IMG/VR virus record: IMGVR_UViG_3300033407_000013
Length of the DNA stretch: 59,268 nucleotides
Direction: 5' to 3' (one strand)
Origin: a virus
This document shows, in pieces, positions 5,802 through 59,268 of the stretch; the first letter of the stretch is position 1; each line of letters starts with the position of its first letter. The position numbers were made by a program, and so were the translations under genes. Under the pieces are notes generated by a model, which was not told where the DNA came from, ran no database searches, and saw nothing but the letters and a program-made list of their open reading frames with translations.

Positions 5802-6071
5802 TCAAGGATCGAGGGCGTCGAGGCACGCCCGGCAGAGCCGGAAACGGTGGAAGCTCGCGCGCTCCCGGCCGAAGAAGGTCGCGCCGTTGCTCAGGCGCTC
5901 CGGATCGCACAACAGCCGCCAGGTCTGCCACGGCGCGATGAAGCGGCCGCCGCTCGATCCGCGCGCCACATGGTAGACCGCCGACCCGCCGCAGCAACCA
6001 AGCGGCTCGCTCGACACCGACAGCGAGGACACCCCCTCGATATCGATCGTCTTCCGGTCCCGGCCCGGCAT
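5802..6071 (-). CDS. Small Cys-rich hypothetical protein (89 aa)
   Basis: MPGRDRKTIDIEG...PLGCCGGSAVY...LCDPERL...FRLCRACLDALDP. The start overlaps the upstream stop (TGATG). Confidence 0.5.
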   Translation of the reverse strand: MPGRDRKTIDIEGVSSLSVSSEPLGCCGGSAVYHVARGSSGGRFIAPWQTWRLLCDPERLSNGATFFGRERASFHRFRLCRACLDALDP

Positions 6072-6805
6072 CAGCGAGCCTCCCCCGCGTAGCGAGCGGG
6101 CCGGAGCTCGTCGCCCTCGACCTGTGGCAGCGCCACGTCGAGCGGCCAACCCCAGCCGACAGCGACAGCGCGCGCCTCGCCGGCCGACAGCGGAACGTTG
6201 ATCCACTGCTCGGCTCCGTCGTCGTAGAGCATCCACGCCTCCTCGTCGACGTCGGTCCGCCGGAGCAGCCGCATGGAATGCACGCCACAGATCGCGCGCG
6301 CGGAGCGATGCGCGATCTCTGGCGCGCACTCATAGGAACACCAACGCCACGGGTCCGGGCTGTTCATCGGGCCGGCACGGTGCGTCGCCTTGCAGGTCTC
6401 GCAGATTCTTCTCACGATTCGCCCCTCTCGTCCTCTTTGATCGCCGAGCGGCGCGTTCGGCCGCCCGGCGCTGCGCGCCACAGCCTCGACGAGAACGAGC
6501 TCGTCTCGCTGAACCTCGTCCTCGAGCGCCTCCATGCGGGCGACGCCGTGCGACACCGTCGAATGATGGTGCCCTCCGACGCCCGCGCCAATCTCCTCGA
6601 GCGTGAGACAAGTCGCCTTGCGAGCGACGTACATCGCAGCGTGCCTCGCTCGGACAATCTTCGCCGAGCGACCGGCGCCGGTAACTGCCTTCACCTCCAC
6701 GCCGAAGACGCGCGCAGCAGCGGCCACAATCGCCTCGATGGTCGGTGGCCTGCCTGCCTCGAGCTCGCGTTCGCGGTCGCGCAGGTAGGCGTTCTTTCCA
6801 ATCAT
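6071..6805 (-). CDS. DnaA domain IV (DnaA C-terminal HTH)-like DNA-binding protein with a C-terminal Cys4 zinc-ribbon-like extension
   Basis: SAKIVRARHAAMYVARKATCLTLEEIGAGVGGHHHSTVSHGVARME matches the Bac_DnaA_C signature (IvxaRqiAMYLxrxlTxxSlxeIGxxFGgrdHsTVxha). Then CETCK...CSYEC follows. Confidence 0.7.
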   Translation of the reverse strand: MIGKNAYLRDRERELEAGRPPTIEAIVAAAARVFGVEVKAVTGAGRSAKIVRARHAAMYVARKATCLTLEEIGAGVGGHHHSTVSHGVARMEALEDEVQRDELVLVEAVARSAGRPNAPLGDQRGREGRIVRRICETCKATHRAGPMNSPDPWRWCSYECAPEIAHRSARAICGVHSMRLLRRTDVDEEAWMLYDDGAEQWINVPLSAGEARAVAVGWGWPLDVALPQVEGDELRPARYAGEAR

Positions 6806-7566
6806 CGGAAGAGCCCTCCAAGGGTTCTCGGTTCTTGCGGGTACTCCCGGACGATCTTCCCGTCGAGCTCGATCCCGAGCTCGGTCCGGTACCCCGCGGA
6901 CTGCTTATGGAAGAACGCCACGCCGGCGTCAGCACACGCGCGGTGCATGTCGCGCGCCCATTGCTTGTCTTCCCGGCGGAAGCCCAGACCGGACTCTCCG
7001 CCGTAGATCACCCACTCGACGCCGGAGAGGTCGATGGCGTGCGCCAGTGGACCGATCGCGGGCTCGTAGCTGACAAAATGAACGACCGCTGGGACAGCGG
7101 TCAGGTGCCGCACGCGATCGGCCACGCGCGCGTCCTCGATCGACGTGCCGAGCCAGACGTTCGGCCAGCCATCGCCCCAATCGTTAGGGAGCTCGTCGGC
7201 GTATCGCTCTGGGCGCTTCGTGAGGAGCTGCCAGTCGAGGTTCGGCGTCGCGCGGATGACGCCCCAAACGTCGGCGCGCCACTCGTTCGGTTCCGGCTGG
7301 TCCTCTAAGACGTCGCAGAGCGACGCACAGAAAACGCGGAGCGATCGACCGAGCTTGGCGGCCTCGCGGTTCCAGCGGGCCGGCTTGCGCCAGTAAGCCG
7401 CGGACGTGCGCTTGCGGGGGTTGTGGTCACCCCACACGTCCAGGCGCATCCGGACTCCGGTGAGGGTCTCGGCGTAACAGTTGGTGCAGCCGGCCGACAC
7501 CTTCGTACACCCCATCCAGGGATTCCATGTGTTGTCGGTCCAGGCGATGATCGACTCTTCGGCCAT
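6802..7566 (-). CDS. Phage Gp37/Gp68 family protein (DUF5131)
   Basis: IAWTDNTWNPWMGCTKVSAGCTNCYAE...WQLLTKRPER...VSYEPAIGPL...WVIYGGESG. This is the typical DUF5131 N-terminal Cys motif and core. AGGAGA lies upstream of the ATG. Confidence 0.8.
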   Translation of the reverse strand: MAEESIIAWTDNTWNPWMGCTKVSAGCTNCYAETLTGVRMRLDVWGDHNPRKRTSAAYWRKPARWNREAAKLGRSLRVFCASLCDVLEDQPEPNEWRADVWGVIRATPNLDWQLLTKRPERYADELPNDWGDGWPNVWLGTSIEDARVADRVRHLTAVPAVVHFVSYEPAIGPLAHAIDLSGVEWVIYGGESGLGFRREDKQWARDMHRACADAGVAFFHKQSAGYRTELGIELDGKIVREYPQEPRTLGGLFR

Positions 7567-8851: not shown

Positions 8852-9430
8852 TCAGGGGGCGGGCTCGAGCCGGAGGCCGAAGTAGCGCGCCGAAGCGCCC
8901 CGAGCGCCTTCGACCGCCTCGACGATCCGGACGCCAACAAGCTCGGCGCGCGCGATCATCTGCGGGAGCATGACGTGCGCCAGGCGCAGCCGCAGCTTGT
9001 GCGGCGTGTGCGCGTACAGCCGGCCGATCCCCAGCGCTTCGGCCTCGGCGATCGACAGCGGACGGTTCGAGCGCGCCGACTTCAATCCGATCGTGAGGTA
9101 GACCGTCGTCGGCTGCTGCACGCGCTTGAGGAGCGCGAGCCAGTGCGCCCACGGCGAACCGTATGTGTCGGCGTCGATCACGTTCTCGTCGAGGCCGGCG
9201 CGCAGGATATCGACCGAGTCGCGCGTCACACGTCCAGACCTGCGCTTCATGTCGACGCCCCAGTAGGTCGAGACCTTGAACTCCTTGCGAAGCTCCCTCC
9301 AGATGACACCCGATCCCTGGCACGCGTCGAACACCCGAATGTCGCCGTCGCGGTGGTAGCGCTTGAGCATGTACCTGCGCACGGCGAGCTTCGCCGGCAG
9401 GTTGTCGTTGTCCGTCTCGCGCACCTTCAC
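8852..9430 (-). CDS. SAM-dependent methyltransferase-like protein
   Basis: FDACQGSG resembles motif I and IDADTYGSPW resembles a catalytic motif. The GTG start overlaps the ParB-like gene stop (GTGA). Confidence 0.5.
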   Translation of the reverse strand: MKVRETDNDNLPAKLAVRRYMLKRYHRDGDIRVFDACQGSGVIWRELRKEFKVSTYWGVDMKRRSGRVTRDSVDILRAGLDENVIDADTYGSPWAHWLALLKRVQQPTTVYLTIGLKSARSNRPLSIAEAEALGIGRLYAHTPHKLRLRLAHVMLPQMIARAELVGVRIVEAVEGARGASARYFGLRLEPAP

Positions 9431-10002
9431 CGCTCCACGTAGTCGTCAGAGACTTCGACAATCGAGCCATCGATCTCTGCGACAGCGTCGATCAACGCCT
9501 GCAGCTCGCCCATGTGCTTGATCGAAACGCCGATCAGGCCCCACACGAAGTTGACGCCCTCGGGCACGTCGATCTTCGCCACGCCCTCGTCAGCGCCGGC
9601 GACCGGGCTGTCGAATCCGGTCAGCGTGACGTCGAAGCCGAGCGAGTCCAGCTCACCGAGCTCGAACGAGAGAACATCACGATCCCAGCCCGCCTCTTCG
9701 GCCAGCCGGTTGTCGGCGAGGATGTACGCGCGTTTCTGCGCCGGCGTCCAGCCGCGCGCGATGACGACCGGAACTTCCTGGATCCCGAGGCGCTGCGCAG
9801 CGAGGACGCGACCGTGCCCGGCGATGATGTCGCCGTCTTCGCCGACCAGCACGGGGTTCGTCCAGCCCCACTCCTGGATCGCCGCGGCGATCTTCGCGAC
9901 CTGCTCCTCGCTGTGCTTCCGAGCGTTGCGAGCATAGGGCACGAGCGAATCGACCTCGCGCACCTCGGGGTTCGATGCAGGCCACTGCTCGCGCTGCTTC
10001 AT
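9427..10002 (-). CDS. ParB-like nuclease domain protein
   Basis: LVPYARNARKHSEEQVAKIAAAIQEWGWTNPVLVGEDGDIIAGHGRVLAAQRLG is the ParBc pattern usually found fused to phage DNA methylases. Confidence 0.75.
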   Translation of the reverse strand: MKQREQWPASNPEVREVDSLVPYARNARKHSEEQVAKIAAAIQEWGWTNPVLVGEDGDIIAGHGRVLAAQRLGIQEVPVVIARGWTPAQKRAYILADNRLAEEAGWDRDVLSFELGELDSLGFDVTLTGFDSPVAGADEGVAKIDVPEGVNFVWGLIGVSIKHMGELQALIDAVAEIDGSIVEVSDDYVER

Positions 10003-25820: not shown

Positions 25821-25857
25821 GAAAGAGCCCCCCCGGGCGGTGCACCCGGAGGGGCTC
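25821..25857 (-). terminator. Stem-loop with a short T-tract after the accessory block
   Basis: GAGCCCC-c-CCGGG / CCCGG-a-GGGGCTC gives 12 bp with one mismatch and a 7-nt loop. It is followed on the minus strand by TTTCGCC. Confidence 0.45.
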
Positions 25858-25901
25858 TCGGAGCTTCTCCCGATGTCGTGGCGGGGCGAAGCTGGCTCGG
25901 A

Positions 25902-26219
25902 TCAGCCGCCGCGGCCGGCCTGCGCCAGCACGAGGGCGCCCATGCGGAGCGCGCCGAGGAGGAGGCCGCGCCACTCGATGCCGGCCGCGTCTGCGCCCTC
26001 CCCGATCACGAGGCCGGCCTTCAAGGCCATGTTGTCGCGCGCGGCGATGAGGAACTCGTCGAAGCCGGGCTCGCCGTTCTCCAGGATGGCCGCGGCGCGG
26101 CTGCTGCGCTCGGCCGCGTAGGTCGCGAGCTCCTCGCGCTTCTCTTCGGCCAACCCACCAAGGCGGCCGGCCGCCTCGTCGAGCATCTTGCCGAACTCGT
26201 CGCGGATGTCGATCCTCAT
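25902..26219 (-). CDS. Hypothetical protein (105 aa) with a hydrophobic C-terminus
   Basis: MRIDIRDEFGKMLDEAAGRLGG...GLLLGALRMGALVLAQAG. The start overlaps the upstream stop region. Confidence 0.45.
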   Translation of the reverse strand: MRIDIRDEFGKMLDEAAGRLGGLAEEKREELATYAAERSSRAAAILENGEPGFDEFLIAARDNMALKAGLVIGEGADAAGIEWRGLLLGALRMGALVLAQAGRGG

Positions 26220-26662
26220 AGGTCGGTCCCCTGCAGCGACACGATCGTCGCGGTGAAGTTGATGGCCCGCTCGGTGAGCTCGTCGGCGACGGTCGGGCCG
26301 ATCATCCCTTCGCCGAGCTTGGTCTGGATTCCTCGGTCGGCCCACGGGCGCATGACCGTCGACCACGGAACTCCGCGCAGCGCAGCCGAATCCTTCGCCG
26401 CGAGCGCTGCGCCGAGTGCATCGCCTTGGGCGCGCAGGCTGTTGGCGGCTCCGGGCAGGAGGTCACCCTCGCTCTCGCCGTCCACGATGCCGTGCAGGTA
26501 GTCGCCGCGCACGCCGGGCCATGCGAGCTCGGCCGCGGGAAACTGCGCGGCCTGCTTGACGCCGTCGACCTTCTCCTGTGATCGGCACGCGACGTTGCTG
26601 CCGGCCATTCCGAGAAGCCCGACCACCAGGCCGAGCGAGAGTAGGGACTGGAGGAGTCTCAT
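26216..26662 (-). CDS. Exported protein (signal peptide, possible lipobox)
   Basis: MRLLQSLLSLGLVVGLLGMAGSNVAC... The start is preceded by CGAAGAAAGCAACCG, a 1-mismatch copy of the conserved initiation motif. Confidence 0.55.
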   Translation of the reverse strand: MRLLQSLLSLGLVVGLLGMAGSNVACRSQEKVDGVKQAAQFPAAELAWPGVRGDYLHGIVDGESEGDLLPGAANSLRAQGDALGAALAAKDSAALRGVPWSTVMRPWADRGIQTKLGEGMIGPTVADELTERAINFTATIVSLQGTDL

Positions 26663-26904
26663 CGGTTGCTTTCTTCGGGTGAAGCCGGCGGCGCCGGCGG
26701 GGGGGCGGCGCGTTCGATCTTGGCCCGCTCCTTGCCCACGTCGGCGAGCGCCTGCCCCCCGACGTACGCGAGCAGCGGCCCGACCACGAACGCGATCTGC
26801 CCGTAGTCCATGCCCCGCTCGAGGCCGAGGAACGCGACGACGGACGCGAGGGCCGCCGCCAGGAACTTCTTCGACTCTAGGATCGGCAGGACCGGGATCT
26901 GCAT
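26659..26904 (-). CDS. Holin-like small membrane protein (2 TMD, charged C-terminus)
   Basis: 81 aa: ...FLAAALASVVAFLGL...IAFVVGPLLAYVGGQAL...KERAKIERAAPPP. GGAG lies upstream of the ATG. Confidence 0.45.
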   Translation of the reverse strand: MQIPVLPILESKKFLAAALASVVAFLGLERGMDYGQIAFVVGPLLAYVGGQALADVGKERAKIERAAPPPAPPASPEESNR

Positions 26905-27128
26905 CGCCTCTCCATACCGAACACCACGGCGGCAAACAAGCCCACACCGGCCGAGAGCTCGACCAGAGCCCACCGCCAGTGCACCAGCAGCAGAAGCGCC
27001 CAGAAACCAACCGCGAAGGCCAGGACGGCGGCAGCCACCAGGACCCCCCACAGGGTCACGCGCTGGACTACGCCAGGCGTCGGCGTCGGCCGACGTCCGA
27101 ATCCCAGGTCAGTGCCGTTGAGTCGCAT
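26877..27128 (-). CDS. Holin/antiholin-like small membrane protein
   Basis: 83 aa with hydrophobic spans LWGVLVAAAVLAFAVGFWALLLLV and LSAGVGLFAAVVFG and a basic tail. The start overlaps the GGDEF gene stop (TGATG). Confidence 0.4.
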   Translation of the reverse strand: MRLNGTDLGFGRRPTPTPGVVQRVTLWGVLVAAAVLAFAVGFWALLLLVHWRWALVELSAGVGLFAAVVFGMERRCRSRSCRS

Positions 27129-27682
27129 CAGAGCTTTGCCAGGGTTGCGGCTCTCTCGGTCGGAACACCGAGCTCGATCTTACGCGCGTGCTTCCGCTCG
27201 GTCACTCCTCGATCGGCCGCGCGGAAGCGGCGGACGAAGTCGCATCCAGGACTCCACACCCCCACGCCGCCCGAGATGAACACGGGCGCCGAGGGACCCA
27301 GGTAGCGCAGGCCGACGGCCATCTCGATTCGATCTCGAACGGCTCGCGCGTCTCCAAGTGTAGCGCCGGGCAGGAGCACGACGAACTCGTCGCCCCCGAT
27401 GCGGTAGACCGAGTCGGCCTCCTCGCGCACGAGACCCGAGACGACGACCAGGAGCTCATCGGCCCCCTGCATTCCGAGCACGACGTTCGCCGCCTTGAGG
27501 TTGGCGACATCGAGCACAACGAAGCCGAACCGACGGCGGCGGCGGCGCAGGCGCCCGGTGACTTCCAGCCAGCGCAGGCGGTTCCAGCATCCGGTCAGCA
27601 CGTCGGTCTGCGCCTCGCGTTGGAGCCTGCGGATCGCGAAGAGGGCACCCCACAGGGTCCACAGCAGGAAGGCTTCGAACAT
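27128..27682 (-). CDS. Membrane-anchored GGDEF-domain diguanylate cyclase
   Basis: N-terminal TMD FEAFLLWTLWGALFAI. Then DVLTGCWNR, VVLDVANLKAANVVLGMQGADELL, YRIGGDEFVVLLPG, FISGGVGV and AADRGVTERKHARK align position by position with the PF00990 / PleD catalytic residues. Confidence 0.85.
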   Translation of the reverse strand: MFEAFLLWTLWGALFAIRRLQREAQTDVLTGCWNRLRWLEVTGRLRRRRRRFGFVVLDVANLKAANVVLGMQGADELLVVVSGLVREEADSVYRIGGDEFVVLLPGATLGDARAVRDRIEMAVGLRYLGPSAPVFISGGVGVWSPGCDFVRRFRAADRGVTERKHARKIELGVPTERAATLAKL

Positions 27683-27710: not shown

Positions 27711-28139
27711 CTAGCTTGAGCCTCGGACCTCGAGCTCGTACGCGTCCGGCGGCGCTGGCGGGAAGTCGATCACGTGGCACTCGCCCACGCGAGACGTGCG
27801 ACGCACGGCCCCCTCGTGGATCTGCGGTCTCGGAATCCTCCTGGTGATCTCGATTAGATACGACTGCGCCGGCGCGAAAACGAGCGGCTCGACGCCAGGC
27901 ACAGCGCGCTCCGAGAGTTTGTGTTTCTGCGCGAGCCGGCCAAAGCCGTAGTTTCCGAAGATCCGCTGCATGGCGGCTGCTGGACTCAGCTCGGGCTCGC
28001 TCCTGCCTTGCGGGATCCAGAGCACGAGCTCGGGCGGCTCGACGTCGTCGAAGCACACGAAACCTTCGGAGATCACGAGGATGGGATCGCGATAGAACGC
28101 CGCATCGCGGCACCGCACGTAGACCGGGACCATGCTCAT
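27711..28139 (-). CDS. Hypothetical protein (142 aa)
   Basis: GAGG lies 7 nt upstream of the ATG. No family recognised. Confidence 0.5.
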   Translation of the reverse strand: MSMVPVYVRCRDAAFYRDPILVISEGFVCFDDVEPPELVLWIPQGRSEPELSPAAAMQRIFGNYGFGRLAQKHKLSERAVPGVEPLVFAPAQSYLIEITRRIPRPQIHEGAVRRTSRVGECHVIDFPPAPPDAYELEVRGSS

Positions 28140-28148
28140 ACCGTAACC

Positions 28149-28445
28149 TCACGCATCACCGGCAGCTCCGTCGTCGTCGTAGGAATCGAGTGCGCCCTCT
28201 TCCACGACGACCTGAACATGTGGGATTGTCCTCAGCAGCAGGCGGCCCAGTGGATGGCCCGGCACCAGTTGGCCGCCGAACCGATGCTCGTTCCCCCACC
28301 AGACGCACTCCCAGTGCGTCCCGCCGCAGCCTACCCCCATCGCGCGGATCAGGTCGGCCTTCACGCCGCAACAATCGTCGCCGAGCTCGAACGGGCAGGG
28401 CGTGTAGCCGTGCTGTCGCTCGAAGTCAGTCAGCGGGCGGGGCAT
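28149..28445 (-). CDS. Cys-rich hypothetical protein (98 aa)
   Basis: ...YTPCPFELGDDCCGVKADLIRAMGVGCGGTHWECVWWG... with an acidic tail. Confidence 0.45.
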   Translation of the reverse strand: MPRPLTDFERQHGYTPCPFELGDDCCGVKADLIRAMGVGCGGTHWECVWWGNEHRFGGQLVPGHPLGRLLLRTIPHVQVVVEEGALDSYDDDGAAGDA

Positions 28446-28749
28446 GGGTTCGGCGCGCTCGCGCGTTCGGGTGCATCGTGCGGTCGATTCGCTCGGTGAG
28501 CACGTCGACCGACTTCTCGATCGCCTCGAGCCGCACGCGGTAGGTCGACTGGATCGCGCCGGCTTCGGCCGCGTTGTCGAGCCTCGCGCTGCGGGTCGCG
28601 ACGTACACGGCGAGGACAGCGGCCCACGCCGGCGCGCCGTTCCACTCGAGCAGGACGAGCGTCACGAGCAGCACGACCGCGTCGACGACCAGGCGCAGCT
28701 TCCACGCTTGCAGCCGTTGCTTGAGCTCCCATAGCCTCGGGCCCGTCAT
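28426..28749 (-). CDS. Membrane protein (2 TMD, 107 aa)
   Basis: LRLVVDAVVLLVTLVLLEW and APAWAAVLAVYVATRS. ATGA overlap with the upstream gene. Confidence 0.5.
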   Translation of the reverse strand: MTGPRLWELKQRLQAWKLRLVVDAVVLLVTLVLLEWNGAPAWAAVLAVYVATRSARLDNAAEAGAIQSTYRVRLEAIEKSVDVLTERIDRTMHPNARARRTHAPPAD

Positions 28750-29294
28750 CCGCCGCGCTCCTTCCGCGCACGGCCTTCCGCGACGAGCTGCTGCTCGACC
28801 TCGAGGATGCGCCGGTAGAACTGCGCCTGCAGCTCGGCGTCAACGACGCGCACGTCCGGCCCGCCCTCGTCCTTCGAGAACGAGGCCGTGTAATGCTCGA
28901 TCGCCTTCGTCTTATCCCCGTCGAACATGGGCGGCATCTCGACGCCGCCTTGCGGGCTGTCCCAGTAGCGCTCGACGAATCCGACGGCGAGTTCGTGCGC
29001 GCGTTCCTTGGTCATGTCGACGAAGATACGATCCCCGATGTTCGGCACGTGCCAGAGCGCCGGAATGTCGGACCCCCAGTGCGCGTGCTGCAACGGAATC
29101 GACTCGGCTTCGGCGATCTCGTCATCGCCATCGACGCGCGCGCCGACTATGAACGGCGCCACGCCGTCCCGGCTGGTCTCGACGGTCTTGCCGTTGTTCG
29201 AGACGTACTTCATCAGCATGAACGCCTCGGGATGCCGGAACGGACGACGCTCATCCTGGATGGGCCTCGACTCTTTCGTGGGGCGGATCTTCAT
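28746..29294 (-). CDS. Hypothetical protein (about 182 aa, start uncertain)
   Basis: Third-position GC rises sharply only downstream of ATG 29294. The 28 codons from ATG 29378 overlap a terminator and look non-coding. Confidence 0.45.
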   Translation of the reverse strand: MKIRPTKESRPIQDERRPFRHPEAFMLMKYVSNNGKTVETSRDGVAPFIVGARVDGDDEIAEAESIPLQHAHWGSDIPALWHVPNIGDRIFVDMTKERAHELAVGFVERYWDSPQGGVEMPPMFDGDKTKAIEHYTASFSKDEGGPDVRVVDAELQAQFYRRILEVEQQLVAEGRARKERGG

Positions 29295-29320
29295 GCCGGA
29301 AGGATACCCTGGGTTCGCCG

Positions 29321-29363
29321 AAAAAGCAAATCGCGGGCCGCCCTCATGGCTTGGACGGCCCGC
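29321..29363 (-). terminator. Intrinsic terminator after the beta-helix gene
   Basis: Minus strand GCGGGCCG-(15 nt)-CGGCCCGC is followed directly by GATTTGCTTTTTCGG. This is the best canonical hairpin plus T-tract in the window. Confidence 0.65.
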
Positions 29364-29387
29364 GACGCGGTGCGGCATTCCCTCCGA

Positions 29388-31100
29388 TCACTGGAAGACC
29401 GGAACATGATCCCGCCGCACCGCACACGCCGTCTCGGTCTTCGGTGCACCGGACAGCCTGCTCTTGTCGTAGGGCAGCGCCTTGTTCGGACTGCCCGGAT
29501 CCCACGTGAGCAAGTCGAGCTCGCGCAGGTAGTCCTCGGTCTCCTGACCGTAGATCACGAGCTCGCCGAGCAAGATCCCGTTCACGCCCATGTTCCACGG
29601 GTCGTCGATCGACACCTCGGCGTTGTTCGACGCGATCTCGTTCCCCGGGTAGAAGTGCACCACTTCGGCAGCCGAGAGCGAGACCGCTCCGCGCTTCGCC
29701 GCGCGGCCCGCGCCCACGTTGGTGAACGTGTTCCCGTACACGTGGACGTTCCGGATCGGATGCCCCCCCGCATTCAGCCAGTTACGCGCGGCCCCCTGCC
29801 CGCTGATCGTGAGGCAGGCGTACCGCGCATCGGTGATTCGGTTCCCGAACACGTAGACGTCGGACTCGGGGCCCACCCAGGACGTGAGGCAGCCTCCACC
29901 GTCCTCGGTCTCGCCGCCGCTCCCGTGCGTCCACCCGTAGCCGTCGGCGAAGTTGTAGGCGATGACGATCGGGCCGCGCGGCCGCGGGTTGTCACCGGCC
30001 TGCGGGCGGACCTGGAAGCCGGTTCGGTTCCCGCCCAGCAGGTTGTTCTCGACGATCCACGTGCCGCCGCCGTTCTCCGGATCGCCGACGCAGCTCTTGA
30101 GGTAGCCGGAATGCTCGCGCACGAGCGTGCCTGGGTCGCCGGGCTTCTCGCCGCGGAACTGGTGCCGACGCCACACGAGCGTGTGCCACTGGTCGATGTG
30201 CATCCCGCTCGCGTGGAGGATCGTCGGCCCGAAGCTCTTGCTCGGGAGCCACCAGCACCCATCGATGATCAGCGTCCCAACGCCGCTGTTCGCACGGATG
30301 ATGAACGAGTCCTCCGGCCCGCGCAGCCCGACGTTGAACGCGGCAACGTAGGAGCCGTAGCCCCACTGCGTCCCCCACCCGAGGCCAACTTCGCACTCGT
30401 CGTCGAGGCCGACGATCTCCACCTGCAAGTCGAGCGACCACGTGTCGCCGACGCGGCGCGTTATCGAGTGGCCCGAGTCGGGGTTCCACATGCCGCCGAT
30501 CGCGAAGCGCCCGCCGTCGTCCCACACGCCGAACGTGATCGGCTTCACGTGACCCGCTTCGATCGAGGCGAGGTACGCGTCGTGCGGGTTCGCTTCGGCC
30601 GGAAGCCCGCGCGTCGACGTGAACACGCCGCCGGCGATCGTCCACTCGCAGTCGGCCAGGTCGGGGACATCGTACTCGGGGATCGGAGGCGCGTCGAAGG
30701 GCAGCGGATCGGGCCACGCGCCGCGGCGCGACGGATCATCGTCCGGAGGTTCGCGGTCAGGGGGATCTCGGTCCGGCGGATCATCGTCCGGCGGATCATC
30801 GTCCGGCGGTTCGCGGTCGGGCGGGTCGTCCGGTGGATCGACGGGACGATGACCGAGCACCAGCTCGAGCAGCTCGCGCTCGGCACGCGCGACGGCCTGA
30901 CGCGCCTCCTGCAGGGCGGCCATGACCGAACGGATGCGCTGCACTTCGGCATCCGTCCACACGCGCTCCGGCGCGTCGTTAGGCGGCAGGATGGGGCGCG
31001 CCCTCTCGTCGACCGGGGAACGCTCTCGGATGCGCTCCTGCGCGACGGTCAGCGCGGGGACGCACAGCATCGCGAGCACGAGCAACAGCAGTCGGTGCAT
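29388..31100 (-). CDS. Secreted right-handed beta-helix (pectate-lyase-fold-like) protein with an Asp/Pro repeat linker
   Basis: Signal peptide MHRLLLLVLAMLCVPALTVAQE with AAGGAG 5 nt upstream of the ATG. The linker PPDDPPDREPPDDDPPDDDPPDRDPPDREPPDDDP follows. PbH1-like turns include NNLLGGNRTGFQV, VFGNRITDARYACLTISG and VHVYGNTFTNVG. Confidence 0.65.
   Translation of the reverse strand: MHRLLLLVLAMLCVPALTVAQERIRERSPVDERARPILPPNDAPERVWTDAEVQRIRSVMAALQEARQAVARAERELLELVLGHRPVDPPDDPPDREPPDDDPPDDDPPDRDPPDREPPDDDPSRRGAWPDPLPFDAPPIPEYDVPDLADCEWTIAGGVFTSTRGLPAEANPHDAYLASIEAGHVKPITFGVWDDGGRFAIGGMWNPDSGHSITRRVGDTWSLDLQVEIVGLDDECEVGLGWGTQWGYGSYVAAFNVGLRGPEDSFIIRANSGVGTLIIDGCWWLPSKSFGPTILHASGMHIDQWHTLVWRRHQFRGEKPGDPGTLVREHSGYLKSCVGDPENGGGTWIVENNLLGGNRTGFQVRPQAGDNPRPRGPIVIAYNFADGYGWTHGSGGETEDGGGCLTSWVGPESDVYVFGNRITDARYACLTISGQGAARNWLNAGGHPIRNVHVYGNTFTNVGAGRAAKRGAVSLSAAEVVHFYPGNEIASNNAEVSIDDPWNMGVNGILLGELVIYGQETEDYLRELDLLTWDPGSPNKALPYDKSRLSGAPKTETACAVRRDHVPVFQ
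30729..30845. repeat. Imperfect 15-bp-type tandem repeats encoding the (PPDDx) Asp/Pro linker
   Basis: Plus strand ...GGCGGATCATCGTCCGGCGGATCATCGTCCGGCGGTTCGCGGTC... Confidence 0.8.
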
Positions 31101-31163
31101 GGCAACTCCTTCGGAGGGGTGCCGGGGGGTCACCCTCAGCCTGCCAAAGCCCGGGCCGCCTCG

Positions 31164-58147: not shown

Positions 58148-59154
58148 AGGTCGCCATTGGTCATGCCCACCGCGTTGCCGCGGACCGTCACGAGGTACGT
58201 ATCCCAGTCAATCCGACTGTCGTACGTGTAGTGGCGCACCTCGACCGTCGTGGGGTCCAGGTCGTCGATCTCGGTCGCGAGGATCTCGATCAAGCGCTGC
58301 CGCGTCGGACAAGGGCGGGCCGTCGTCATCGACTCCTGCAAGTTGCCGCGCTGCCATCGGAACAGTAGGTCGCCCTCGGCGTCCTCGGGCGGCTCATCGA
58401 CCGCGACTTTCGCCATCGAGTGCCGCGCACTCGGGCGGTGCAGGTCGGGCCGGTCCTCGCCGATCCGGCCGTCCGGCTGCAACTCGATCGTCGCCGCCTG
58501 CTTGCGCCTGATGCCCTGCGCGAGCAGATCCCACCGGCGGCGCACGAAGTCGGCCACCTCTTCGTCGGTGCCCTCGGCGTTGGTCCCGTAGTTGGTGATC
58601 ACGTCGCCGCCGTGCGTCGTGATCGTGAAGAACCGCACGGTGCCGAGCGCGGTCTTCACGAACTCGTCGTGGCCGGCCTGCGCCGGCGCAACCGGTGGCT
58701 CGGGTTCGTCAACCGCCTTCGGGTCCTTGCCACCCCAGTTCGGACGTGTACCGCCGAAGCCCCCGGGCACGACGTGCTCCTCGCTGCACGGCGCGGCGCA
58801 CGCATCCTCGAGCGCATTGAGCAAGCCGTCTACGTTCTCGACACCGCCAGCGCGCAGCCCAGGGGTGCCATCGCCAGGCACGGGCAACGTGATCTCCTTC
58901 GGAGCACCCATCTGTTCCGTCCACTCATTCACAGCGGCCTGCGGGCCACGGCGGTCTTCGTCAGTCGTGTGCTCGTCGATGCGCACACGCTTGACCTTCT
59001 CGGCCTTGGCCGCCGCGAACAACTCATCGCTCAGGAAGCCCAGGATCGCGAGCATCTTCCCCTCGCCCACGCTCTCGGCCGAAACCGACACCTCCTCGAG
59101 AGGCACCCACGCCTTCCCATTCCACACGCCGACCTTCCAAGTCCTCGTCGTCAC
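58144..59154 (-). CDS. Hypothetical protein (336 aa), starts inside the terminal repeat
   Basis: GTG at 59154 overlaps (GTGA) the stop of CDS 10..867 when the contig is circularised. I prefer it to the ORF-track start at 59217. Confidence 0.55.
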   Translation of the reverse strand: MTTRTWKVGVWNGKAWVPLEEVSVSAESVGEGKMLAILGFLSDELFAAAKAEKVKRVRIDEHTTDEDRRGPQAAVNEWTEQMGAPKEITLPVPGDGTPGLRAGGVENVDGLLNALEDACAAPCSEEHVVPGGFGGTRPNWGGKDPKAVDEPEPPVAPAQAGHDEFVKTALGTVRFFTITTHGGDVITNYGTNAEGTDEEVADFVRRRWDLLAQGIRRKQAATIELQPDGRIGEDRPDLHRPSARHSMAKVAVDEPPEDAEGDLLFRWQRGNLQESMTTARPCPTRQRLIEILATEIDDLDPTTVEVRHYTYDSRIDWDTYLVTVRGNAVGMTNGDL

Positions 59155-59268
59155 GCGACCTTCTCTGCGGGCAGCCTCTCCAACTCCTCCAATACGATCG
59201 CGCGGATGCGCTCCCACGCATGGCTTTTGGCGCCGTCGGCGGCGGCGGAGGCGGCGGAGGCGGCGGCG
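59142..59268. repeat. Terminal direct repeat, right copy (identical to 1..127)
   Basis: Read directly, with no mismatch seen. Confidence 0.95.

Follow-up and report, generated by a model that had tools for sequence, protein, structure and literature searches.

The virus record IMGVR_UViG_3300033407_000013 from IMG/VR, called the window here (the whole stretch of 59,268 nucleotides that was analyzed), carries on its minus strand a gene for a GGDEF-domain protein of 184 amino acids (aa). Our analysis makes it probable that this protein is a minimal diguanylate cyclase, likely to be constitutively active, by which a virulent-looking siphophage reprograms its host via cyclic di-GMP (c-di-GMP). 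Enzymatic activity, product, constitutive behavior, host response and timing of expression are predictions from the sequence. The gene and the parts of its product that carry the argument are as follows.

27128-27682, minus strand: GGDEF gene, predicted stand-alone diguanylate cyclase (open reading frame, Pfam, TIGR00254, AlphaFold2, Foldseek)
27185-27613, minus strand: GGDEF catalytic domain, residues 24-166 (Pfam envelope, WspR alignment, conserved columns)
27383-27397, minus strand: GGDEF motif, G96-F100, preceded by R86-E-E-A-D90 (sequence, alignments)
27611-27682, minus strand: N-terminal helix, residues 1-24, with a hydrophobic stretch at residues 4-17 followed by RRLQRE; putative signal-anchor or dimerization stalk (AlphaFold2, Kyte-Doolittle)

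The open reading frame (ORF) runs from ATG to TGA exactly as in a first-pass annotation of this DNA, and has a GC content at third codon positions (GC3) of 0.82. The contig of origin, a metagenome contig of 59,282 bp in ENA, has an identical 184-aa protein among its gene calls. The first-pass annotation had read a complete GGDEF domain by eye and had named the lack of a PF00990 match as grounds for refutation. The match found is significant (E=1.6e-14), covers profile positions 1-157 of 161 and scores 54.5 bits, where the gathering cutoff is 23.8 bits; TIGR00254 is matched with 56.1 bits (cutoff 37.4 bits). Three PHROG families, all of unknown function, are also matched by the protein. AlphaFold2, supplied with 20 family members, gives a model with a mean pLDDT (predicted local distance difference test) of 96.1, in which a helix at residues 2-24 is followed by the GGDEF fold. 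Among the Foldseek PDB matches listed (best 50), all are GGDEF-domain proteins and nearly all diguanylate cyclases, with E down to 2e-12; they include WspR, GCN4-WspR, SadC, SiaD, PleD and DgcZ. The highest query TM-score (0.77) belongs to the coiled-coil and GGDEF fragment of Caulobacter DgcB (PDB 6TTR), and the top PDB sequence match is the GCN4-WspR fusion (PDB 3I5C). Collectively, all hallmarks of GGDEF diguanylate cyclases that could be tested here are present in the protein, which lacks the optional inhibitory site (I-site) as well as the features of Hypr enzymes. Its enzymology is expected to be ordinary.

The catalytic residues were checked in a HMMER alignment to WspR and in a family alignment of 20 members, and both bear out the residues that had been matched to PleD by eye. 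The counterparts of D58 and K63 are the Asp and Lys in WspR DVDYFK, and those of N66 and D75 are the guanine-specifying Asn and Asp, D75 pairing with the Asp of WspR GHVAGDE. The signature itself is G96-G-D-E-F100, with the Arg ahead of the motif present (R94-I-G96). Towards the C-terminus, K164 aligns with the conserved “AK” Lys of WspR, and K168 occupies the position of the “GRN” Arg, i.e., Lys for Arg. In PleD, the equivalent positions are D327 (metal Asp), K332 (catalytic Lys), N335 and D344 (guanine Asn and Asp), and K442 and R446 (phosphate Lys and Arg). D58, N66, D75, R94, GGDEF, K164 and K168 are invariant in the 20-member alignment, in which identity to the query is only 37-55%, and K63 is kept in at least 90% of the family. 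Such invariance across 20 divergent members argues for selection on catalysis. The Asp at the guanine-specifying position also favors c-di-GMP over cyclic GMP-AMP (cGAMP) as product, and we rejected a Hypr (cGAMP synthase) identity because D75 is an invariant Asp and not Ser, in line with the first-pass annotation.

The same annotation had described the I-site as non-canonical, and this holds. The canonical site is RxxD, five residues upstream of GG(D/E)EF, whereas R86-E-E-A-D90 is RxxxD. The HMMER alignment has a 4-residue gap exactly at the I-site Arg of WspR (RSSD in WspR), and D90 is variable within the family. These results support a GGDEF domain that is complete, guanine-specific and without a canonical I-site.

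The protein belongs to a clade with a signature of its own, in which the motif D-x-[AT]-N-L-[KH]-x-[AL]-N replaces the canonical DxDxFKxxND. A word-indexed search returned the exact protein and 20 relatives of 126-222 aa (39-59% identity), most of them on contigs of 42-67 kb, Tara Oceans scaffolds among them. The clade motif occurs in 21/21 top matches and in 0/93 other GGDEF matches, and the canonical string in 67/114 GGDEF matches. None of 80 bacterial-genome loci from 185,579 species genomes has the clade motif (best identity 36%), and the 19 collected loci that do have it are all viral or phage-sized contigs. An exhaustive search of 1.84 billion cluster representatives (50% identity) with a hidden Markov model (HMM) gave 517 matches below 1e-30, and the top 150 of these include 23 further representatives with the strict motif. 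GGDEF is kept in 22 of the 23, the motif scan showing GADEF in P0142. Sixteen of them are stand-alone proteins of 152-218 aa, and the other seven are proteins of 1,414-2,122 aa with the GGDEF domain near residues 500-800 (embedded representatives include P0144, P0147, P0153-P0155 and P0189). Giant viral ORFs with the clade GGDEF in mid-protein are also found among the collected loci (L011:4177-8748, L012:4507-8829 and L015:3958-10026), and in these Pfam detects GGDEF only, plus, in L015, LPD38, a domain associated with large polyvalent proteins. The window protein is stand-alone at 184 aa and hence not a module of a polyvalent protein. In all data searched, the clade is restricted to viral or phage-sized contigs.

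Distant members lie in unrelated phages, such as locus L005 with its DNA polymerase A, and L006 with its SSB and Mu-type portal. At both loci, and in L171, the GGDEF gene stands among early or replication genes. This distribution, together with the copies inside giant phage proteins, points to host takeover, and not lysis, as the common function of the family.

The first-pass annotation had given the protein one N-terminal transmembrane (TM) segment. The helix is there, and its hydrophobic stretch AFLLWTLWGALFAI comprises 14 uncharged residues, but its Kyte-Doolittle mean is 1.15 over 19 residues and 1.62 over 15 residues, where the usual TM threshold is ~1.6 over 19 residues and a bilayer span takes ~18-20 residues. 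The four closest relatives (P0002-P0005) have 18 uncharged residues and 19-residue means of 1.7-2.0, and P0011 has a strong TM segment (2.74). However, most family members do not have such a segment, as P0006-8, P0010 and P0013-21 start with an Arg-, Glu- and Ala-rich amphipathic helix. Membrane anchoring of the window protein is therefore plausible but marginal, and would be a lineage-specific trait and not a family-wide one; if anchored, the RRLQRE that follows the hydrophobic stretch would leave the catalytic domain in the cytoplasm. The element that is conserved is a short N-terminal helix, which is most simply read as a dimerization stalk, as in DgcB and GCN4-WspR. From the similarity to these two proteins, dimerization would take place via helix 2-24.

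The genome that carries the gene has a GC content of 68%, and its high-GC3 genes, as judged from the ORFs of the window, lie almost all on the minus strand. Positions 1-127 and 59142-59268 of the window form an exact direct repeat of 127 bp. Due to this terminal repeat the contig closes on itself at ~59,141 bp, which makes the window the complete, circular genome of a siphophage (~59.1 kb). About 60 ORFs were scanned with Pfam, PHROGs and NCBIfam. The PHROG and Pfam matches include the head genes (large terminase, portal, head morphogenesis, scaffold, major head protein, adaptor and neck proteins), the tail genes (tail tube, chaperones, tape measure, tail assembly and a Phage-tail_3 protein) and a replication and recombination module with DUF6011, a PD-(D/E)XK nuclease, an ERCC4 nuclease, a RecD2-like helicase and a primase-like protein. 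This module also has proteins with DUF932, ParB_N, DUF5131 and DnaA_C domains. A Bac_DnaA_C protein (E=2e-18; 6071-6805), a DUF5131 protein (6802-7566) and a ParB_N-domain protein (9427-10002), all on the minus strand, together hint that the phage may interfere with replication or segregation of the host.

No integrase or excisionase family was matched among the scanned ORFs and the structural genes are present, so the description as a lytic-looking phage is a fair one. A recent survey of the Mesyanzhinovviridae likewise did not find integrases (PMC11946847). By its major capsid protein, the window is nearest to the Alphaproteobacteria phage PhiJL001, a member of this family (68% identity), and Pseudomonas NP1/PaMx25-like siphophages reach ~55%. 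Apart from the capsid, the similarity to PhiJL001, which has no GGDEF gene, is limited to the N-terminal portion of the tape measure protein and two local matches that are weak, and megablast found no close cultured relative. A scan of bacterial genome contigs for prophage copies or a host returned generic GGDEFs alone (<=36% identity). The host may be a diderm with a high GC content and possibly an alphaproteobacterium, which we infer only weakly.

How such an enzyme would act can be outlined from these features. The N-terminal helix would pair two GGDEF domains; that of the window protein is hydrophobic enough that it might sit in or on the inner membrane, while in most relatives it would form an amphipathic coiled-coil stalk. 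Each domain would bind one GTP and the pair would make c-di-GMP. Since there is neither a sensor domain nor RxxD product inhibition, expression alone should flood the infected cell with c-di-GMP. This second messenger controls motility, pili, adhesion and matrix, and in alphaproteobacteria the cell cycle, and many of these structures are phage receptors. The flood might thus switch the host to a “sessile” program in which motility and the display of pilus or flagellar receptors go down, envelope and matrix functions are altered, and in some bacteria (alphaproteobacteria) the cell cycle as well. The phage could benefit from a host that is kept in place, from better replication, from the exclusion of superinfecting phages, or from several of these. 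This biological pay-off is conjectural.

Some points weigh against it. A helix of 24 residues is short for a stable coiled coil, and dimerization is assumed. The clade changes three highly conserved positions, in that the second Asp of the canonical string becomes Ala or Thr, the Phe becomes Leu, and the Asp after the Asn is variable. That the host has c-di-GMP effectors is an assumption, the capsid identity to PhiJL001 being the sole clue to the host. Finally, no phage-encoded c-di-GMP effector or phosphodiesterase was found in the window, and no Rfam family, c-di-GMP riboswitches included, was found within it.

The cyclase gene is the fifth of nine in a unit of small genes. The other features of this unit, in the direction of transcription, are as follows.

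29318-29365, minus strand: terminator-like hairpin (13-bp arms, 29365-29331) plus TTTGCTTTTT, after the gene for a 581-aa protein (repeat finder)
29301-29329, minus strand: promoter-like TTGCTT-17-TATCCT, 8/12 matches, just below threshold, overlapping the T-tract of the hairpin (scan)
28746-29219, minus strand: 157-aa protein, first gene of the unit
28426-28749, minus strand: 107-aa protein with one TM segment, conserved in L002 and L004
28149-28445, minus strand: 98-aa Cys-rich protein
27711-28139, minus strand: 142-aa conserved protein directly upstream of the GGDEF gene (homologs in relatives)
26877-27128, minus strand: 83-aa protein with two TM segments, its ATG overlapping the GGDEF stop (TGATG), without a Shine-Dalgarno sequence of its own (sequence)
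26659-26904, minus strand: 81-aa protein with two TM segments, a charged C-terminus and its own Shine-Dalgarno sequence GGAGAGG; sole holin-like candidate (PHROG, topology)
26216-26662, minus strand: 148-aa exported lipoprotein-like protein, with ATGA overlap with the upstream gene (signal peptide, then Cys)
25902-26219, minus strand: 105-aa helical protein with a C-terminal hydrophobic tail and ATGA overlap upstream, last gene of the unit
25824-25858, minus strand: GC-rich hairpin (14-bp arms) beyond the 105-aa gene, its T tail weak (repeat finder)

The first-pass annotation had the unit bounded by terminators. Hairpins do flank it, but the T tail of the downstream one is poor, and a strict promoter and terminator scan of the window gave nothing on the minus strand; the hairpins came from the repeat finder alone. 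The boundaries are therefore plausible and not firm. The sub-threshold TTGCTT-17-TATCCT could be the start of the unit. Upstream of the hairpin, the gene at 29388-31133 (minus strand) encodes the 581-aa protein, in which a signal peptide and a linker of acidic, proline-rich repeats (PPDDPPDREPPDDDPPDDDPPDRDPPDREPPDDD) can be recognized; no family is matched, and the protein may be a secreted or tail-associated enzyme.

The 157-, 107- and 98-aa proteins have no informative match in Pfam, PHROGs or NCBIfam. Homologs of the 142-aa protein lie upstream of the GGDEF gene in L002, L004 and L170, and L007 has a truncated 55-aa ORF there. We tried this protein as a possible endolysin or c-di-GMP effector and came to no assignment, as its 8 homologs gave no Pfam domain and no PDB profile match. 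Its AlphaFold2 model is poor (pLDDT 64), and Foldseek has no match below E=0.29. Downstream of the cyclase, homologs of the 81-aa protein occur in L002, L007, L170 and L169, and homologs of the 105-aa protein in L002, L004, L007, L169 and L172. The 148-aa protein has an invariant Cys at about position 26, and its homologs in L002, L004, L007, L170 and L172 have that Cys as well. The 148- and 105-aa proteins resemble a split unimolecular spanin, i.e., an N-terminal lipobox plus a C-terminal TM segment, and the pair is kept as two ORFs in L002, L004, L007 and L172. In L169 (5638-6441), the 81-aa-like and 148-aa-like proteins are fused in one ORF of 267 aa, which suggests that the two act together.

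Within the same phage group, gene order is conserved: the GGDEF gene is followed by one or more TM proteins, the 148-aa-like lipoprotein, the 105-aa-like protein, DUF6011, PD-(D/E)XK, AAA_24 and ERCC4. This order holds in the window, L002/L003, L004, L007, L169 and L172, and the short contig L170 has matching neighbors upstream and downstream of its GGDEF gene. The TGATG overlap with the 83-aa ORF is present as the first-pass annotation had it, and positional and topological equivalents of this ORF overlap the GGDEF stop in L002 (10588-10866), L007 (3358-3651) and L170 (1404-1613), by ATGA in L002 and L007 and by 35 nt in L170. These overlaps support translational coupling of the cyclase gene to a small membrane-protein gene, which is kept in close relatives. 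The overlapping ORF, whether called or uncalled, goes with a hydrophobic N-terminus of the GGDEF protein (window, L002/L003, L007 and L170). Where the N-terminus is not hydrophobic (L004 and L172), a gap of 41-44 nt is followed by an unrelated protein of 130-153 aa with one TM segment. L169 has a marginal hydrophobic stretch and lacks the ORF with two TM segments. This co-occurrence is suggestive of a membrane partner, and it comes from about two independent lineages. The link to a cassette of membrane genes holds only for this phage group.

These observations allow a bolder version of the favored reading. The clade would be a phage-exclusive set of feedback-insensitive, sensor-less cyclases that serve as a general takeover weapon, either stand-alone or within giant polyvalent proteins that may be injected. 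The enzyme of this phage lineage would be tethered to the membrane and gated or localized by its co-translated partner with two TM segments, which would tie the c-di-GMP burst physically to the holin or exclusion cassette and thereby to lysis timing or receptor shutdown. We regard this combination as rather unlikely.

The position of the gene also raises the question of whether the cyclase is part of a lysis or membrane cassette, anchored in the inner membrane and co-translated with its partner, in which the protein or its c-di-GMP controls holin triggering (lysis timing) or a membrane complex for superinfection exclusion, so that global host reprogramming would be secondary. The stop/start overlap with an ORF that has no Shine-Dalgarno sequence, in the window, L002, L007 and L170, would fit such a role, as would the presence of that partner in all contigs with a hydrophobic GGDEF N-terminus and its absence from L004 and L172. 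The first-pass annotation had called the 83- and 81-aa genes a holin-like pair. Both proteins do show holin-like topology, each with a pair of hydrophobic segments and a basic or charged C-terminus, and the 81-aa protein resembles class II holins in its two TM helices and charged C-terminus. However, only the 81-aa protein has PHROG holin matches, and these are marginal (phrog_9987, E=0.007; phrog_4712, E=0.011); the 83-aa protein has none, and Pfam and NCBIfam are empty for both. The unit follows directly after the tail genes, where PhiJL001 carries an annotated endolysin, so its position would suit a lysis cassette. Yet neither the unit nor the rest of the genome (~60 ORFs) gave a match to an endolysin, muralytic or spanin family. 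The neighboring lipoprotein also differs from a canonical spanin pair, as it has 148 aa and the hydrophobic segment of its partner is C-terminal and not N-terminal. A tblastn search with the 148- and 81-aa proteins against 50,697 phage records had no match, the 81-aa homolog search returned 6 proteins, all unannotated, and no annotated relatives were found for the 148-, 105-, 83- and 81-aa proteins; the lysis enzyme of this phage group may be novel. Against a role in lysis are, furthermore, the sub-threshold helix of the window protein, the small number of independent lineages behind the co-occurrence, and the members in other phages, which have no membrane neighbors and lie near replication or MazG-like genes or inside giant proteins. 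We therefore consider the lysis-cassette explanation unlikely, the holin assignment weak and the link between cyclase and lysis unproven. As the gene lies within a block of small envelope-directed proteins, surface remodeling or exclusion fits at least as well as lysis.

The cyclase might alternatively be a counter-defense tool, whose c-di-GMP or non-canonical product disturbs the nucleotide-based immunity of the host, or which drains GTP, instead of acting on motility or biofilm signaling. The occurrence of the same clade in giant phage proteins, one of them with a polyvalent-protein domain, would agree with this, and so would the departure of the clade motif, in beta1, from the canonical GGDEF motif. 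In addition, two unrelated phages have a gene for a MazG-like (PRA-PH) nucleotide pyrophosphohydrolase within three genes of the cyclase: in L171 (5001-6040) it is directly downstream with overlapping ends, and in L005 (10001-11340) it is three genes downstream. However, the guanine-specifying Asn and Asp and the phosphate and metal ligands are all canonical, which predicts ordinary c-di-GMP, and no defense or anti-defense family was detected beside the window gene. We know of no defense system that is blocked by c-di-GMP, and this explanation seems quite improbable.

That the domain is dead or very weak in vivo, and serves as a scaffold or receptor that binds GTP or c-di-GMP like some degenerate GGDEF proteins, is highly improbable. 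The clade-wide changes in DxD (second Asp) and FK (Phe) and the GADEF of P0142 would speak for it. Against it, the catalytic residues, which degenerate receptor GGDEFs typically lose, are all conserved, and the very element that is missing is the I-site, through which GGDEFs of the receptor type bind c-di-GMP.

The reading of a minimal, virally encoded cyclase can be compared with known systems. PleD of Caulobacter and WspR of Pseudomonas have the same fold, metal Asp, Lys, guanine Asn and Asp, Arg before the motif, GGDEF, and C-terminal Lys plus Arg or Lys. In contrast to them, the window protein has only 184 aa, no receiver or sensor domain and no RxxD I-site, and it has the clade-specific motif. 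The DgcB fragment and GCN4-WspR likewise have a single N-terminal helix directly before the GGDEF domain, and in both the helix dimerizes the catalytic domains. The window helix is shorter (~24 residues) and in this subclade hydrophobic, and DgcB and WspR keep their I-sites. The Hypr cGAMP synthases of the GacA type share the GGDEF fold, but have Ser at the position of PleD D344.

The first-pass annotation had considered the arrangement uncharacterized. In our searches of full-text literature, no GGDEF enzyme encoded by a phage turned up that had been studied biochemically or genetically, but viral GGDEF genes as such have been reported from computational work (PMC5512222; PMC7785012; PMC11295528), and Bacillus phage SP-15 has an annotated GGDEF gene. 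GGDEF modules are known from polyvalent proteins of phages and plasmids, which are proposed to be delivered at infection and to counter host responses, the GGDEF modules by interfering with host nucleotide signaling on delivery (Iyer et al., 2017; PMC5512222), and diguanylate cyclase genes are present on marine viral contigs (PMC7785012). Like the window gene these are carried by viruses and inferred computationally, and the clade motif is also found in phage proteins of 1,400-2,100 aa. The window gene differs in being stand-alone and minimal, in a unit of small genes beside membrane-protein genes. The earlier reports did not define this clade or its motif. New here are the signature of the clade, which in the data searched is confined to viral contigs, the minimal layout of the protein and the conserved coupling of its gene to the ORF with two TM segments. 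The existence of such an enzyme will not surprise specialists, but the clade makes the question of why a lytic phage would make c-di-GMP directly testable. Its presence in several unrelated phage groups and in giant proteins offers a tractable entry to what a phage gains from a c-di-GMP burst, and the minimal, I-site-free helix-plus-GGDEF enzyme could serve as a compact tool to raise c-di-GMP.

The only studied precedent we found is YIP, a peptide of lytic Pbunavirus phages (14-1 and LBL3) that activates YfiN, a cyclase of the host, and so increases c-di-GMP in the infected cell (PMC8085984). YIP acts via the TM helices of this membrane cyclase, and the phage is proposed to benefit from lost motility, superinfection exclusion and effects on the cell cycle (PMC8085984). 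By analogy, one may speculate that the 83-aa protein with two TM segments plays a YIP-like partner role. While YIP is a small peptide that works indirectly and hijacks the enzyme of the host, the window phage carries the enzyme itself. If our reading is true, a lytic phage with its own unregulated cyclase would be a case of direct viral rewriting of the motile/sessile decision of its host.

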